From a virus (lineage: Duplodnaviria > Heunggongvirae > Uroviricota > Caudoviricetes), in the IMG/VR virus record IMGVR_UViG_2778261506_000008, positions 1 through 5,797 of that record: a DNA stretch of 5,797 nt; one strand, written 5' to 3'. The notes below the pieces were generated by a model. The model was not told the DNA's origin and did not search any database. It saw only the letters and a program-made list of their open reading frames with translations. The translations under genes and the position numbers were made by a program. Every line of letters begins with the position of its first letter. The first letter of the stretch is position 1. Of this stretch, positions 1-5,797 are shown one piece after another.

Positions 1-438
1 AGGCCGCAGTCGGTAACCTCGCGCATACAGCCGGGCAGTGACGTCATCGTCTGCGCGGAAATGGACGAACAGTGGGGCTATGTCGGGGCTAAATCGCGCC
101 AGCGCTGGCTGTTTTACGCGTATGACAGGCTCCGGAAGACGGTTGTTGCGCACGTATTCGGTGAACGCACTATGGCGACGCTGGGGCGTCTTATGAGGCT
201 GCTGTCACCCTTTGACGTGGTGATATGGATGACGGATGGCTGGCCGCTGTATGAATCCCGCCTGAAGGGAAAGCTGCACGTAATCAGCAAGCGATATACG
301 CAGCGAATTGAGCGGCATAACCTGAATCTGAGGCAGCACCTGGCACGGCTGGGACGGAAGTCGCTGTCGTTCTCAAAATCGGTGGAGCTGCATGACAAAG
401 TCATCGGGCATTATCTGAACATAAAACACTATCAATAA
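1..438 (+). CDS. insB: IS1 transposase InsB (5'-partial, frame open to window start; stop TAA 436-438)
   Basis: Translation (…[42 protein letters not shown]…[15 protein letters not shown]) is near-identical to IS1 InsB from memory. Two residues differ from the canonical copy I recall (Arg for Ser in YDRLRK and in LMRLLSP), suggesting an iso-IS1 variant. Confidence 0.9.
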
Positions 439-453
439 GTTGGAGTCATTACC
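431..453. repeat. IS1 right terminal inverted repeat
   Basis: Terminal ~23 bp matches the IS1 inverted-repeat end (complement reads GGTAATGACTCCAACTTATTGAT). Confidence 0.75.
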
Positions 454-480
454 CTGGAGCCGGACAGCAAAGACGGCCAG

Positions 481-1521
481 ATGGTGGCGCTGGTTGCGCT
501 GGCTATTCACGATGCCAATAACACGGCCATTACTGTTTACAACTGCTTCTCACCTGCTACGGGTTACGGCGCAGCGCTGACCAGTAACGTGAAAATTAAC
601 GGTATCGCGCGCAAAGGGGCGACGAACTCCACTGTGGATCTGCTGCTCACCGGCACTGCAGGGACAACTATCACGAACGGTACCGTTAAAGACACTAATA
701 ACGTGATCTGGCGTCTTCCTGCCTCAGTAGTGATTGGCGTTGACGGTACGGTTACGGCCACTGCCACTTGCTCAAACAGCGGCGCTGTCGCAGCGCTGGC
801 GGGGACAATTACTACCATCAACACACCGACTCGAGGCTGGACATCGGTAACCAACCCGGCGGCGGCCACCGTAGGCGCACCAGCAGAAACCGACGCAGAG
901 CTGCGCATCAGGCAGGGGCAGAGCGTCGCGCTACCCTCTATCACGCCGTTTGAGGGCGTTGACGGTGCGATTGCTAACGTTGCTGGCGTGACACGTCACA
1001 AGCTCTACGAAAATGATACTGGCGCGACCGATAGTAACGGGCTGCCGCCACACTCTATCTCAGCCATCGTGGACGGCGGGGACGTGACCGACATTGCCCA
1101 GACTATCCGGGGTAATAAAGGGCAGGGAACGGCGACCTACGGTACGACCTCTGTCACGGTACCGGACACTTACGGCAACCCACACGTGATCAGTTTTTCG
1201 CGTTCGACTGATGTTCCGATTTACGGGCATATCACACTGAAAGCCTTTACGGGCTACACGTCGCAAATTGGCGTGCAGATTCAGCAGGCCGTCGCGGATT
1301 ACATCAACGGGCTGACGATCGGTGATTCGGTTCTGCTGAGCCGCATATACTCCCCGGCGAACCTCGGCGTGGTGAGTGGTGGCAGTGCAAGCTATTACGA
1401 CATTCAGGAGCTGCTGATTGGCAAATCTGCCGGAACGGTAGCGGCGGCGAATATCAATATCGCCTACAACGAATCAGCGTCCTGTAAGCCGGAAAATATT
1501 GTTCTAACGGTGACGTCATGA
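481..1521 (+). CDS. Phage baseplate protein (baseplate J / Mu gp47 / e14 JayE-like), probably 5'-truncated by the IS1 insertion
   Basis: 346-codon ORF rich in Gly/Thr/Ala/Val, typical of a structural protein, sitting first in a coupled tail operon ahead of a tail fibre. The frame is open from the IS1 junction (454) to the first ATG at 481 and there is no Shine-Dalgarno before 481, so the true start probably lay upstream of the IS1. Stop overlaps the next start (ATGA at 1518-1521). Family assignment is from position and composition, not a confirmed domain match. Confidence 0.55.
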   Translation: MVALVALAIHDANNTAITVYNCFSPATGYGAALTSNVKINGIARKGATNSTVDLLLTGTAGTTITNGTVKDTNNVIWRLPASVVIGVDGTVTATATCSNSGAVAALAGTITTINTPTRGWTSVTNPAAATVGAPAETDAELRIRQGQSVALPSITPFEGVDGAIANVAGVTRHKLYENDTGATDSNGLPPHSISAIVDGGDVTDIAQTIRGNKGQGTATYGTTSVTVPDTYGNPHVISFSRSTDVPIYGHITLKAFTGYTSQIGVQIQQAVADYINGLTIGDSVLLSRIYSPANLGVVSGGSASYYDIQELLIGKSAGTVAAANINIAYNESASCKPENIVLTVTS

Positions 1522-2198
1522 GCAAGTACACAGATTTAATCACCAACTACCACGCCACCAGACCGAAATACTTTGATCACATCGACCTGAGCACCCGGCC
1601 GCTGATTGACATCACATCAGCCACCCGGGGGCTGGTTAGCGCATTTGACATTGATACGGCGGTAGGCGTCCAGCTTGATACCCTCGGGCTCTGGATCGGA
1701 CGTAGCCGTATAGTCAGCCAGCCCATTACGGGAGTTTATTTCAGCTGGGACACCGACGGGCTCGGATATGACCAGGGCGTCTGGCAAGGGCCGTATGATC
1801 CGGACTCAGGCTATACGTCGCTGAGCGATGACACCTACCGCATCATTCTGAAAGCAAAAATCGCTATCAACAACTGGGACGGCCGCAACGACTCTCTGCC
1901 GCCCATCCTTGACGCTGCGACTGCAGGCTCTGGCCTGAAGATGCAGATCGTCGACAACCAGGACATGACGATTTCGGTCTGGGTTTTCCCCGAGACTGAT
2001 ATTTCTGATGTGTCACTAGAACTGATCGCCGCTATCAAACAGGGCTATCTCACCGTAAAAGCTGCTGGCGTATGGGCCGGTGATGTGGAAACGCCTTCGG
2101 TAGAAACACCGTCCGAGGGCTCAAAATTCTTTGGTTTTGATATGGATAACGAATACATCGGCGGGTTCGATGTAGGAGCATGGGGGACTTTACTCTAA
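1518..2198 (+). CDS. Phage tail/baseplate protein (position of P2 gpI / Mu gp48 / e14 YmfQ)
   Basis: 226-codon ORF coupled to both neighbours (ATGA overlap at start, TAATG overlap at end) between the baseplate-J-like gene and the tail fibre gene. GGTGA-like SD 4 nt upstream. Function inferred from synteny only. Confidence 0.5.
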   Translation: MSKYTDLITNYHATRPKYFDHIDLSTRPLIDITSATRGLVSAFDIDTAVGVQLDTLGLWIGRSRIVSQPITGVYFSWDTDGLGYDQGVWQGPYDPDSGYTSLSDDTYRIILKAKIAINNWDGRNDSLPPILDAATAGSGLKMQIVDNQDMTISVWVFPETDISDVSLELIAAIKQGYLTVKAAGVWAGDVETPSVETPSEGSKFFGFDMDNEYIGGFDVGAWGTLL

Positions 2199-2959
2199 TG
2201 GCAACAAATAACTTTAAAGCGTTCGCGCTTGATCCTAATGCTAACGTCATGTCACAGGCTGACTGGGAATCGCTTCCGGCGTTGCTGTCCGGGTTTACCG
2301 CTGGTAAAGCATCCAGCGCTCAGGTCAACAAAGCCATTCGCCAGGCGACCACAATTGCCGCGCTGGTGGGGCAGTTTATTGCGAACTCCGGAGTAGATGC
2401 CCTGGACAATGCAGACGTTAACGGGCTGGTGACAAAATTCACGAATGCGCTTACCGCAAATCTCCGTTTGGGAGCTGGTGCTCCAGCTATAGGTATTCCT
2501 TTTTTCTGGCCGTCCTCGGCTATGCCAAATACGGTTATGACAGAATGGGCTGATATGGTATTTCTTAAGTTCAACGGAGCGACGTTCTCAGCGACCGCAT
2601 ACCCTAAATTAGCGCAGGTAATCCCTAGCTTAAAACTCACCGAAGCACGTGGCGAATTCCCACGGATTTGGGATGATGGTCGCGGAGTTGACTCAGGGCG
2701 AACCCTACTTAGCGCTCAAGGGGACGCTATTCGAAATATTACTGGCCAAATTATTGGCGCAAACTATAGAGCATGGCGTGGAGAGCCTACAGGGGTCTTT
2801 TCGTCAGCAGAATTGTCTCCAGGCAGTTCATTAAGTACAGATGGGACATCAAATACCAACGGCAGAGCAACCACTATGGATGTATCTCTTCAGGTCCCTA
2901 CTGCATCTGAAAATCGTCCACGTAACATAGCTTTTAACTTTTTAGTAAGGGCTAAATAA
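2198..2959 (+). CDS. Phage tail fibre protein with tail-collar domain
   Basis: N-terminus MATNNFKAFALDPNANVMSQADWESL is typical of Mu/e14-type side tail fibres. C-terminal half carries the collar signature (…TEARGEFPRIWDDGRGVDSGRTLLSAQGDAIRNITGQI…RPRNIAFNFLVRAK). Start chosen at the ATG overlapping the upstream stop (TAATG); an in-frame ATG at 2180 is an alternative. Confidence 0.8.
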   Translation: MATNNFKAFALDPNANVMSQADWESLPALLSGFTAGKASSAQVNKAIRQATTIAALVGQFIANSGVDALDNADVNGLVTKFTNALTANLRLGAGAPAIGIPFFWPSSAMPNTVMTEWADMVFLKFNGATFSATAYPKLAQVIPSLKLTEARGEFPRIWDDGRGVDSGRTLLSAQGDAIRNITGQIIGANYRAWRGEPTGVFSSAELSPGSSLSTDGTSNTNGRATTMDVSLQVPTASENRPRNIAFNFLVRAK

Positions 2960-3552
2960 TGAAACCAATTTTTGATAAAAATGGCCTGGCTACTGAATCA
3001 GGAAATATTCGCTGTTTTTATTACGATGAAAATACGAATGAATATATTGGTTGGTCAGATGAATATATTAATTTAGGTGTTAGCATGCCCAGTAACTCTA
3101 CCGATATTGAACCGGATCAGGAAGTAGACGGAATGATAGCTGTCTTTGTAAGCGGTGCCTGGAGGTATGAGGAGGATAATCGTGGAGAAATAGTCTACTC
3201 AACTGATACCGGCGAGCCTATGGAAATCGATTATATTGGCAAAGTTCGTGATGGTTTCACAAGAGTCGCCCCTTCAACCCCTTTCGACAGATGGGATGGT
3301 CAACGCTGGGTAATAGATGAAGATGCAAAGCATACTTCTGATGTTGTAAGTGCTGAAAAAGAAAAGGAGTTTAGAATTAATGAGGCTAATGAGTATATTA
3401 ATAGGATGCAATGGCCTGGTAAAGCATCCTTAGGGCGATTGAAAGAGACAGAAAAGGCTGAGTACAATAAATGGATTGATTATTTGGACGAACTTTTTTC
3501 CACGGATACATCAACGGCCCCAATGGTGAACTTCCCAAATAAACCAGAGTAG
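2959..3552 (+). CDS. Tail fibre assembly protein (Tfa chaperone, Caudovirales TAP family)
   Basis: 197-codon ORF starting at a TAATG overlap with the fibre gene, AAGGG SD 7 nt upstream. C-terminus …WIDYLDELFSTDTSTAPMVNFPNKPE resembles the conserved Tfa C-terminal motif (compare …VDTSTAPDIEWP…). Lower GC than the upstream tail genes. Confidence 0.8.
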   Translation: MKPIFDKNGLATESGNIRCFYYDENTNEYIGWSDEYINLGVSMPSNSTDIEPDQEVDGMIAVFVSGAWRYEEDNRGEIVYSTDTGEPMEIDYIGKVRDGFTRVAPSTPFDRWDGQRWVIDEDAKHTSDVVSAEKEKEFRINEANEYINRMQWPGKASLGRLKETEKAEYNKWIDYLDELFSTDTSTAPMVNFPNKPE

Positions 3553-3570
3553 GCATAAGCTATAGTATAA

Positions 3571-3593
3571 AGGGCATATTTGGCATATGCCCT
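3571..3593. terminator. Perfect 9-bp hairpin between the convergent tfa and acyltransferase genes (putative bidirectional terminator)
   Basis: AGGGCATAT-ttggc-ATATGCCCT, located 19 nt after the tfa stop and 14 nt after the acyltransferase stop, with A/T-rich flanks. Confidence 0.4.
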
Positions 3594-3606
3594 AATAAAA
3601 GGATTT

Positions 3607-4569
3607 TTATAAAAACAATGGTCGTTTGTAGACCTTCTTGAAAAGTGTAAGGGAGTACGATAAAGATAATGTGAGAACTATAATGGTAATAAATAACACT
3701 GATTTATTATTTATGCCGATTATGTCAAATATTTTATTTGTCGCTTTGATACAAAAAACATGTGCAAAGAAAATTGCTGTAGCAAAATCAGATAGTTTTT
3801 TTGAGTTTCCAGTCAAGGTTCCGCTTTTTGCAATTAAGAAGAGGATTGTAGATGTTGGTATGGAAAATATGAAAAGATCAATTGGTTTGTTTATTCCAAA
3901 AATCGCCTTGTTAATAATGCTTTCCGAAAGTAAAAGGCATATCGAGATTGCTAAAGTTGCATAAACTATTTTTTTGCTAAATTTCGAGAAAGTCTCAGTT
4001 ATGTTTAATTTATTAAGGAGAAAACCGAAGCATAAAAACGGGAAGCAATCAAATAAAAAATTCCTATATAGAGTTATTTTTATTTGCTCGTTCGTTATAA
4101 TTGTATTTACATATCCTTTGTTTACGATGTATTGAATAATTAATCCTATAAGGTATAGGGATAAGGAAGCAAGTAATAATTTTTCTGGGCGTAAATTTCT
4201 GCATTGCCTCAGAACAAGTGATGCCAGAATTAAACCCGGGATATACCATAATAGATGGTAACCAAAAAGAATGTTTAATAAAATGTCAATACCAGAATTG
4301 TTAGGTATCCAAAAATAAGAATACACGCACATCCAAGTAATATATAAAACGACTAATTTTTTTTGGTTTTTAAAGTATTCATTACTATTGATTGTTTTAT
4401 ATAGATAGTAACCGTTTATTATCAAAAACGTAGGTACTGCTATCCGGAATATTCCGTTGACCAGTAAATAACTCAAATCCATATTAAAAGATGCTAAGAA
4501 CTTCAAATGTAAAAGCATGACAAAAATTGACAGTAGAATTTTTAGTAGATCTAGGGTGATGTTTCTCAT
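3607..4569 (-). CDS. Integral membrane acyltransferase, acyltransferase-3 family (OafA/Oac-like), candidate O-antigen/LPS O-acetyltransferase
   Basis: 320-codon, highly hydrophobic multi-helix protein. Three acyltransferase-3 family motifs are present: N-terminal R-x4-D-x2-K…H (MRNITLDLLKILLSIFVMLLH), the RIAVPTFLIINGYYL block (family R…FF-x-SGF region), and HLLWYIPG (family HLWFL motif). Very AT-rich (by eye under ~30% GC), unlike its flanks. Weak SD. Confidence 0.7.
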   Translation of the reverse strand: MRNITLDLLKILLSIFVMLLHLKFLASFNMDLSYLLVNGIFRIAVPTFLIINGYYLYKTINSNEYFKNQKKLVVLYITWMCVYSYFWIPNNSGIDILLNILFGYHLLWYIPGLILASLVLRQCRNLRPEKLLLASLSLYLIGLIIQYIVNKGYVNTIITNEQIKITLYRNFLFDCFPFLCFGFLLNKLNITETFSKFSKKIVYATLAISICLLLSESIINKAIFGINKPIDLFIFSIPTSTILFLIAKSGTLTGNSKKLSDFATAIFFAHVFCIKATNKIFDIIGINNKSVLFITIIVLTLSLSYSLTLFKKVYKRPLFL

Positions 4570-4674
4570 GGTTTCATAAATGCCACTTTATTGATTTTTT
4601 CATATACTAACGTAATATTTTTATTATTTCACCAATAAATTGTCTGGCACACATGCATACTAAGTTCGGTTTGA

Positions 4675-4811
4675 AGGTTAAAGCTCGCGGAGGAGCTGTG
4701 GGCTGAAGCAGGAAGATTGATTGCGGCCGGGAAACCCTGCCAGTGCGTGGAGATAATTTATGATGGGGCGTTTTCAAGCTGTACCTGAAGCCCCCGGCGG
4801 GAAATGTGTGA
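4675..4811 (+). pseudogene. 3' remnant of a serine DNA invertase gene (Gin/Pin/Hin/Cin family), C-terminal HTH domain only, with a 1-nt frameshift
   Basis: Frame 1 (4675-4785) reads RLKLAEELWAEAGRLIAAGKPCQCVEIIYDGAFS; shifting by one nucleotide near 4777 continues as LYLKPPAGNV then stop (4809-4811). This parallels the invertase C-terminus as I recall it (Gin: …KAEWEQAGRLLAQGIPRKQVALIYDVALSTLYKKHPA). There is no start codon, and the upstream sequence is the AT-rich cassette on the opposite strand, so the catalytic N-terminal ~150 codons are missing. Confidence 0.55.
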
Positions 4812-4819
4812 AGTAAATG

Positions 4820-4850
4820 CAGGCGGCCTAGACGACAAACTGGCCGCCTG
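4820..4850. terminator. GC-rich hairpin between the invertase remnant (+) and the dinI-like gene (-); putative bidirectional terminator
   Basis: CAGGCGGCC-(13 nt loop)-GGCCGCCTG, a perfect 9-bp stem 7 nt downstream of the dinI-like stop and 9 nt downstream of the invertase-remnant stop, followed by TTTCACGTT on the + strand. Confidence 0.35.
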
Positions 4851-4857
4851 TTTCACG

Positions 4858-5124
4858 TTACATCGCAACTTGACGCACAGATGGGAGCTCAGACACCAAC
4901 CATATATCGGCCTCTTCAAACATATCCTCAAGCATGCGGTTCAGCTTCTCCCGATCGCTTTTGCTGGCATCGCTATTCAGGCCGTTCGCTTGCATCGGCT
5001 TCACCCTTACTTCGGCATCAGGGAAAATCTGGTGCACTCGTTTCGTCAGCTCTGCCAGGATAATCTCTCTGGCCCCTTCGAGCCCCTCTACATTGCGTTT
5101 GTCATAAACCAGTTCAACGAACAT
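4858..5124 (-). CDS. DinI-family protein (DNA-damage-inducible protein I-like, RecA-filament modulator), prophage-encoded
   Basis: 88-codon ORF; …ILAELTKRVHQIFPDAEVRVKPMQANGLNSDASKSDREKLNRMLEDMFEEADIWLVSE aligns with E. coli DinI from memory (…LAGELSRRIQYAFPDNEGHVSVRYAAANNLSVIGATKEDKQRISEILQETWESADDWFVSE). Strong SD GGAGG 5 nt before the ATG. LexA boxes lie upstream. Confidence 0.85.
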   Translation of the reverse strand: MFVELVYDKRNVEGLEGAREIILAELTKRVHQIFPDAEVRVKPMQANGLNSDASKSDREKLNRMLEDMFEEADIWLVSELPSVRQVAM

Positions 5125-5141
5125 AAAAGCCTCCGGAAAAC

Positions 5142-5189
5142 CACTGTGGTTGTATACAGTGTTTTTACTGTAAAAATAAACAGTGTCAA
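5142..5189 (-). promoter_or_regulatory. Tandem LexA operators (SOS boxes) overlapping the dinI-like promoter
   Basis: Two CTGT-N8-ACAG motifs: cores at 5144-5159 (CTGTggttgtatACAG) and 5168-5183 (CTGTaaaaataaACAG), the second matching the 20-mer consensus TACTGTATATATATACAGTA closely. On the gene strand a perfect -35 TTGACA (5184-5189) abuts box 2; candidate -10 hexamers are TAAAAA (5162-5167) or TATACA (5151-5156). Boxes sit about 20-60 nt upstream of the dinI-like ATG. Confidence 0.7.
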
Positions 5190-5246
5190 GGCGAGCGGGG
5201 CGCGAAAGGGAGAGGGGGTTTTGTTACCCTTAGTTACAAATAGAAA

Positions 5247-5277
5247 AACCCCAGACCGTGAGATCTGGGGTTCTTTT
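5247..5277 (-). terminator. Rho-independent terminator (bidirectional) between ssrA and the dinI-like promoter
   Basis: Stem AACCCCAGA / TCTGGGGTT (9 bp, 8-nt loop) flanked by U-runs on both strands (TTCTTTT on +, TTTTTCTATTT on -). Lies about 125-150 nt downstream of the mature tmRNA 3' end. Confidence 0.5.
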
Positions 5278-5395
5278 AAAGTGCACGTGCATTTCACGTG
5301 TATATTTTTGTCTTTTCTCGGTCTGCCTGCTGTCTGGTCAGTGTCCGTAAGTGGCTGTTTTTATTGCCGCTGTCCGGTTGCAGTCCTATCAAAAG

Positions 5396-5758
5396 TGGTG
5401 GAGCTGGCGGGAGTTGAACCCGCGTCCGAAATTCCTACATCCTCGGTACTACATGCTTAGTCAGTCTTTACATTCGCTTGCCAGCTGCGGACGGACACGC
5501 CACTAACAAACTAGCCTGATTAAGTTTTAACGCTTCAACCCCAGGCAGGACTTCCACGCGATCTCTTTTGGGTTTGACCTCTCTTGATCCCCGTCCTAAG
5601 AGCGGAGGCTAGGGAGAGAGGGCTCTAAGCAGGTTATTAAGCTGCTAAAGCGTAGTTTTCGTCGTTTGCGACTATTTTTTGCGGCTTTTTACGAGGCCAA
5701 CCGCCCCTCGGCATGCACCTTGGGTTTCGCAAATCCCGTCGAATCCAGAATCAGCCCC
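5396..5758 (-). ncRNA. ssrA: tmRNA (SsrA), complete 363-nt mature sequence
   Basis: Reverse complement begins GGGGCTGATTCTGGATTCGACGGG and ends …CCCGCCAGCTCCACCA, and contains the tag template GCAAACGACGAAAACTACGCTTTAGCAGCTTAA (ANDENYALAA). Essentially identical to the E. coli tmRNA I recall. Confidence 0.97.
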
Positions 5759-5772
5759 AATGTGTAAAGGTA

Positions 5773-5778
5773 AGTATA
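5773..5778 (-). promoter_or_regulatory. Putative -10 hexamer (TATACT) of the ssrA promoter
   Basis: TATACT lies 14 nt upstream of the mature tmRNA 5' end, consistent with a precursor start a few nt upstream of the mature end. The -35 would lie beyond the window. Confidence 0.4.
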
Positions 5779-5797
5779 CCAGATTTATGAGCGCCAT

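Follow-up and report, generated by a model that had tools for sequence, protein, structure and literature searches.

The DNA analysed in this work (the window) is a stretch of 5797 bases that comprises positions 1-5797 of the E. coli draft contig NLVP01000052.1 (assembly GCA_002511785.1). It is identical, base for base, to L011, which begins at contig base 1, inside an IS1 element. Table 1 shows the features found from this contig end to the ssrA gene; in the source contig, smpB is the next gene after ssrA and lies just past the window end. The window is the right end of a contractile-tailed prophage that is integrated at ssrA.

Table 1. Features of the 5797-base window
Feature	Position	Strand	Remarks
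3' 453 bp of IS1 (about IS1 nt 316-768)	1..453	+	insB 3' part, frame 1, stop TAA 436-438
IS1 right terminal inverted repeat	431..453	-	GGTAATGACTCCAACTTATTGAT on the minus strand; last IS1 base 453
First 9 bp of phage DNA, CTGGAGCCG	454..462	+	gene nt 133-141; candidate surviving copy of the target duplication
5'-truncated baseplate J/gp47 gene	454..1521	+	codons 45-399 of 399; Pfam PF04865
Baseplate wedge protein (DUF2612/Phage_Wedge1), intact, 226 aa	1518..2198	+	Pfam E=6.7e-45
Tail-fibre/collar-like protein, intact, 253 aa	2198..2959	+	named phage tail protein in source records
Tail-fibre assembly protein, intact, 197 aa	2959..3552	+	Pfam Caudo_TAP E=6.2e-26
Acyltransferase-3 family membrane protein, 320 aa	3607..4569	-	Pfam PF01757 (Acyl_transf_3)
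DinI-like gene, 88 aa	4858..5124	-	Pfam DinI PF06183 E=3.2e-22
ssrA (tmRNA, tag ANDENYALAA)	5396..5758	-	ARAGORN; 3' end faces the prophage

The prophage at ssrA and its cargo genes

Intact prophages with the same right end beside ssrA-smpB were found in L001, L004, L005 and L035, and the 3' end of ssrA appears to be the attachment site of the prophage. An exact copy of the wedge protein was present in the intact prophages L003-L010, and an exact copy of the tail-fibre protein was present in intact (L004, L005, L035) as well as truncated prophages; a Pfam search with the 253-aa tail-fibre protein returned no match. Cultured relatives of the tail module are the Yersinia phage YP3 (85% nucleotide identity), the Salmonella phage SEN34 (80%) and the Citrobacter phage Omnitron (78%), and the order of sheath initiator, J, wedge 1 and fibre is that of the simple contractile tails (Mu, E217, XM1 and Pam3). 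One of the intact copies at ssrA (L005) lies in a 4.84-Mb contig of assembly GCA_023558905.1, the proteins of which are named Enterobacter kobei. Its tail module differs from that of the window at 11 of 3099 bases, and this prophage appears to be a very recent cross-genus relative.

The acyltransferase gene has a GC content of 29.5% and the fibre-assembly gene one of 40%, compared with about 55% in the tail and baseplate genes; the low-GC block at the right end is compositionally foreign cargo. The exact acyltransferase protein belongs to a cluster of mainly 320-aa proteins from E. coli and Enterobacter kobei. Upstream of the DinI-like gene are two LexA-box-like sites, at 5142-5161 (CACTGTGGTTGTATACAGTG) and 5166-5185 (TACTGTAAAAATAAACAGTG), with CTG-N10-CAG cores at 5144-5159 and 5168-5183. 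They match TACTG(TA)5CAGTA at 14 and 16 of 20 positions, respectively, and are the two best such sites in the window, which suggests that the DinI-like cargo gene may be under SOS control.

The IS1 end and the truncated baseplate gene

When bases 1-453 of the window were compared with two annotated 768-bp IS1 copies (IS1A/IS1B) of E. coli LHM10-1 (L002), the identities were 99.8% and 99.3%, and both alignments terminated at the element's final base. When reverse-complemented, the IS1 right end (GGTAATGACTCCAACTTATTGATAG...) matches bases 401-453 exactly, and the 23-mer at 431-453 also closes both 768-bp copies of L002. The ORF at 61-438 matched the Pfam family DDE_Tnp_IS1 (PF03400) with E=1.7e-73 over profile positions 7-131 of 131. 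The window element is thus like IS1 of E. coli (IS1A/IS1B) in its identical terminal inverted repeat, its 99.3-99.8% identity over 453 bp and its InsB ORF, and at such a length and more than 99% identity a chance resemblance to IS1 may be considered ruled out. The window covers no more than the right 59% of the element, and the left end and insA lie outside it.

In every comparison with intact, IS-free prophages, homology began at base 454 (at 453 in some matches). From 454 to 1521 the translation is free of stops (LEPDSKDGQMVALVALAIHD..., LEPDSKDGQM...), and the first in-frame start codon after the junction is the ATG at 481. The preliminary description had placed the IS1 right end against an open phage frame, and this was confirmed by the IS1 identity of bases 1-453 and the stop-free frame from 454. 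It had also given the sequence of bases 454-462 correctly, as the window reads CTGGAGCCG there. This 9-mer occurs once at the equivalent position in intact L003 and L005, and L004 reads CTGGAACCG. The insB gene and the truncated J gene share a reading frame, with the insB stop TAA at 436-438 and five codons in between (window 436-456); the shared frame is probably a coincidence.

A contig that starts inside a multicopy repeat could owe such a join to a chimeric end produced in short-read assembly. However, at least 25 independent contigs, which come from several projects and several assemblers (NCBI, Logan, ENA), share the identical junction, and it was found in three different downstream contexts, so that an assembly artefact is scarcely conceivable here.

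The retained ORF matched Baseplate_J (PF04865) with E=2.7e-14 and 53.5 bits (cut-off, 21.1), and wedge proteins in the PDB matched J with E values down to 1e-31. The intact homologues are 399 aa long (L002, 5869-7068; L003, L004 and L005, 8805-10004; L035; L038-L040; and further 399-aa cluster members) and read MALNLDTLGLSATVTAEGISAPDYQTILDTLTSYFQQIYGSDAY followed directly by LEPDSKDGQMVALVALAIHD... (...GSDAY followed by LEPDSKDGQM...), the boundary between the two being window 453/454. Relative to them, the window J lacks 132 nt (44 codons, MALNLDTLGLSATVTAEGISAPDYQTILDTLTSYFQQIYGSDAY), the start codon and the ribosome-binding site; a comparison of the 355 codons that remain with residues 45-399 of the L004 protein and of the L005 protein shows 2 aa differences in each case. 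The number of missing codons, which the preliminary description had left to alignment with intact homologues, is therefore 44, and the ATG at 481 is the internal Met54 in the alignment, the intact genes starting 53 codons earlier. The description's further point that the frame has no start signals of its own also held: no sigma-70-like promoter was found in 300-700, including any hybrid outward promoter from the IS1 end, and the bases ahead of 481 (AAAGACGGCCAG), read directly, contain no good Shine-Dalgarno match.

The gene could be untruncated only if J existed as a shorter natural variant that starts at the ATG at 481, with IS1 in the intergenic space. Indeed, the ORF at 481-1521 is open and has been called as a 346-aa protein, and the Pfam Baseplate_J match falls entirely inside the retained part. 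Nevertheless, every full-length relative has 399 aa and continues across the junction point; the 27 nt before 481 are coding sequence in the same frame and match codons 45-53 of the intact genes exactly; the solved homologues align from the N-terminus; there is no ribosome-binding site or promoter-like site; and no 346-aa form was found other than the one behind this IS1 junction. A natural short variant was thus refuted by the alignment to intact homologues, and we give it practically no weight.

Alignments with the chains of the solved homologues, among them XM1 gp16 (7kh1) and E217 gp44 (8env), begin at query residues 11-17 and chain residues 2-10, and the missing N-terminal segment is part of the conserved fold and not a dispensable extension. 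In E217, two copies of gp44 and one of gp45 make up a triplex, and six triplexes form the baseplate "nut" that bears the fibres (PMC10329688). The window gene is like Mu gp47, E217 gp44, XM1 gp16 and Pam3 gp22 in its Baseplate_J match and in its sequence matches to the solved chains, but unlike them it is without residues 1-44 and the start signals. Because the 44 N-terminal codons and the expression signals are absent, the window copy of J is a pseudogene and not a working member of the family. For the same reason, the element is predicted to be unable to make tails, in line with the loss of tail assembly claimed in the preliminary description. The acyltransferase and DinI-like cargo genes are intact, as the description had also stated (ORFs of 320 and 88 aa, both with Pfam matches).

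J has been inactivated in other ways elsewhere (L001, 5869-7067; L016, 10001-10200; P0019, P0026, P0105 and P0107). The gene has a frameshift in DX6 and a TAG nonsense codon at codon 44 in L016, and there are several other frameshifted N-terminal fragments. Some of these frameshift and nonsense alleles may be sequencing or assembly errors.

The left side of IS1 and the sister copies

The public contigs that carry the junction, more than 25 in number, without exception start in or at IS1. Among the carriers are the assemblies GCA_002511785.1, GCA_028525825.1, GCA_018028575.1 and GCA_022968465.1 and the run SRR13871137. The junction was absent from the complete E. coli RefSeq genomes, which were queried with the whole window and with a 311-nt junction probe. 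Exact-pattern scanning of IMG/VR for the right junction and for the predicted left one found no copy of either, and a scan of JGI metagenomes and GTDB representative genomes with one degenerate pattern for both junctions found neither of them. All that the pattern scans matched was an unrelated IS1 junction, CTGGACCCG, in nine copies.

The preliminary description held that the 5' part of the gene and a second copy of CTGGAGCCG lie just beyond IS1. In such a simple insertion, IS1 would have entered J at CTGGAGCCG and duplicated 9 bp, the first 141 nt of J would adjoin it on the left with the whole upstream prophage beyond them, and inactivation would come only from the disruption of the gene and the polarity of IS1. 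The sequence ...GACGCTTA(C/T)CTGGAGCCG should then run into the IS1 left end GGTGATGCTGCC, with the sheath-initiator gene upstream. Consistent with this, the right junction coincides with the IS1 terminus to the base, the phage sequence beyond it is colinear and in frame, and the downstream genes are undamaged. In addition, simple insertion is the commonest IS event (PMC11708052), and the usual duplication made by IS1 is 9 bp. The two IS1 copies of L002 (9955-10722 and 12803-13570), which are close to a related prophage, served as a control. One of them has a perfect 9-bp target duplication, with CACGTCTTG on both sides; the other has no duplication and is beside a truncated fdeC. The right end of the L002 prophage does not adjoin ssrA.

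Retention of the 5' 141 nt next to the IS1 left end would be expected to give each carrier a 55-aa ORF (...SDAYLEPGDAANLLI). We predicted such ORFs for duplications of 0, 6, 8, 9, 10 and 12 bp at the IS1 left end, together with one at the right end. An exact look-up in about 15 billion proteins found none of the predicted J'(1-47)::IS1 products, and no J sequence with a tail running into IS1 was found among 52 cluster representatives of N-terminal fragments or their listed members. The protein collection also yielded no 44-47-aa contig-end partial of the expected J allele. These absences count against a simple insertion, since 35 blocks of the same collection contain the right-junction product and comparable J fragments of 50-56 aa are routine in it: many of 51-56 aa that arose from frameshifts are recorded (P0012, P0105, P0106, P0107, P0119), and the same gene caller recorded a 41-aa ORF on the window's own contig. 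The absence of the chimeric ORF appears to be meaningful but not decisive, as it depends on gene calling and on the assumed 5' allele.

Contigs that end at J codon 43/44 (P0030) were first suspected to be the left junction and were rejected, as they contain no IS sequence. Many Logan contigs of this kind (the ends of L017-L025; 64 index blocks) stop at J nt 129-131. The contig ends are probably merges in the de Bruijn graph, at a place (from about nt 100) where co-resident J alleles would become the same. Among the J ends at codon 43/44 there was one true TAG nonsense allele, that of L016.

Looking up the window's exact 253-aa tail-fibre protein identified sister copies of the prophage with different left boundaries. 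The prophage in L035 is intact and has no such boundary. In L012, L037, L041, L042 and L043 the boundary is IS1 joined to J nt 133. In L038-L040 (bases 1-209, 1-99 and 1-29) an IS3 end forms it, 8 nt ahead of the start codon of J, and in L044 (bases 1-30) the same IS3 end is at nt 195 of the wedge gene; the identity of the end as IS3 was confirmed. The two IS3 endpoints make up a nested series, which looks like a typical product of successive adjacent deletions. In L036, the chromosomal gene ypjA is fused directly to nt 285 of the wedge gene. The L036 contig crosses this boundary: ypjA (5192-6712), which encodes an autotransporter, is cut after 506 of 1526 codons, the junction is at 6689/6690 (window 1802), and there is no IS at the joint. 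The deletion took out the remainder of ypjA together with the left attachment site and the entire prophage as far as the wedge gene. The start of the L036 contig is an IS1 right end inside an alpha-amylase pseudogene, about 6.6 kb to the left of the joint, and this IS1 has the same orientation as that of the window.

The five carriers of the IS1-J' junction that were compared (L012, L037, L041, L042 and L043) showed zero differences over 1.8 kb, and because their remnant sequences are identical, one ancestral event fits the IS1-J' junction. The IS3-bounded copies and the ypjA fusion are likewise identical to each other over 1.8 kb and 1 base away from intact L035; the two groups are 4 bases apart over the same 1.8 kb. 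The IS1-J' remnant was found in three downstream contexts, namely at ssrA, beside a P4-like element and beside a 186-like prophage, and it therefore appears to have persisted through later integrations. In some carriers, integrative elements are in tandem between the DinI-like gene of the remnant and ssrA (L012, 5294-11096; L041, 5340-12582; L036, 10804-17847; L043, 5098-10609). The P4-like tandem element has genes for primase/D5, Ash, AlpA, Ogr/Delta and Psu, and the tandem element of L043 is a 186/P2-like prophage with integrase, CI, CP76 and Fil.

Probable loss of the left part of the prophage

Since the predicted left-junction ORFs are absent and the sister copies are truncated from the left in other ways, we favour a deletion. 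The 5' end of J and the upstream prophage were probably lost by IS1-associated deletion or recombination, which left an IS1-bounded remnant. IS-adjacent deletions and IS-IS recombination are both documented causes of IS elements without target duplications (PMC11708052). Some evidence speaks against a deletion. The left side of the window IS1 is unseen, each contig stopping in the IS; most IS insertions are simple, and in the LTEE 69 of the 69 IS movements without an associated large deletion left a duplication (PMC11708052); one IS1 of L002 has its perfect 9-bp duplication; and the downstream tail genes are intact, which would fit a recent event of either type. For a simple insertion, on the other hand, the expected fusion proteins and contig-end partials are missing, and deletions from the left are demonstrable in sister lineages of this prophage. 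We consider a simple insertion possible but rather unlikely, and the claim that the 5' part of the gene and a second CTGGAGCCG are just beyond IS1 was not confirmed.

For the favoured deletion we propose that the IS1 right end joined to J nt 133 would be the left edge of a prophage remnant of about 5 kb. An adjacent deletion mediated by IS1 may have removed the 5' piece of J and the upstream prophage, or two IS1 copies may have recombined with the same result; the loss could have taken place after an initial insertion at CTGGAGCCG or have proceeded from an IS1 first sited further left. The 9-mer CTGGAGCCG may be the surviving copy of a duplication, or it may simply mark where an IS1 adjacent deletion ended. 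With no functional J protein, there would be no baseplate and hence no tails, and the plus-strand genes for the wedge, the fibre and fibre assembly would be cut off from any late promoter. The minus-strand acyltransferase and DinI-like genes keep their own upstream regions in either case and are likely the parts that are still expressed. The tail-assembly defect holds under a deletion and a simple insertion alike.

The locus resembles the IS-mediated adjacent deletions described in the LTEE (PMC11708052) in that an IS end is against a truncated gene with no second half detected, and sister copies of the window prophage show the nested IS3 series. Unlike in the LTEE, the deletion at the IS1 junction is inferred and not observed.

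CP4-57 of E. coli K-12 is a defective prophage at the ssrA locus. The window is similar to such defective ssrA prophages in being a degraded element at the 3' end of ssrA and in the tandem occupancy of the site by other integrative elements, as P4-like and 186-like elements adjoin the remnant in L012, L041 and L043. Unlike CP4-57, the phage of the window is a myovirus related to YP3, SEN34 and Omnitron (78-85% nucleotide identity).

All four independent left-end truncations in this single lineage of the prophage (by IS1, by IS3 at two endpoints and by the ypjA fusion) spare the right end. It is conceivable, but in our view quite improbable, that selection has kept a right-end module (fibre, fibre assembly, the low-GC acyltransferase and the LexA-boxed DinI-like gene) while the rest was repeatedly stripped. 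If this were true, the remnant would be a domesticated cassette for surface modification and SOS modulation and not neutral debris. The spared right end could be explained equally well by the loss of ssrA and smpB that a deletion running the opposite way would entail.

For annotation, the 346-aa "hypothetical protein" (481-1521) of the public record should be a 5'-truncated, IS1-bounded baseplate J pseudogene, and the element should be described as a defective prophage remnant. IS1, the Baseplate_J wedge gene, the ssrA prophage and IS-driven prophage decay are all already known, and this instance is an ordinary one, the importance of which is small beyond annotation. The locus is a small example of IS elements eroding a prophage from one side while the cargo at the attachment site persists, a process that is well documented.
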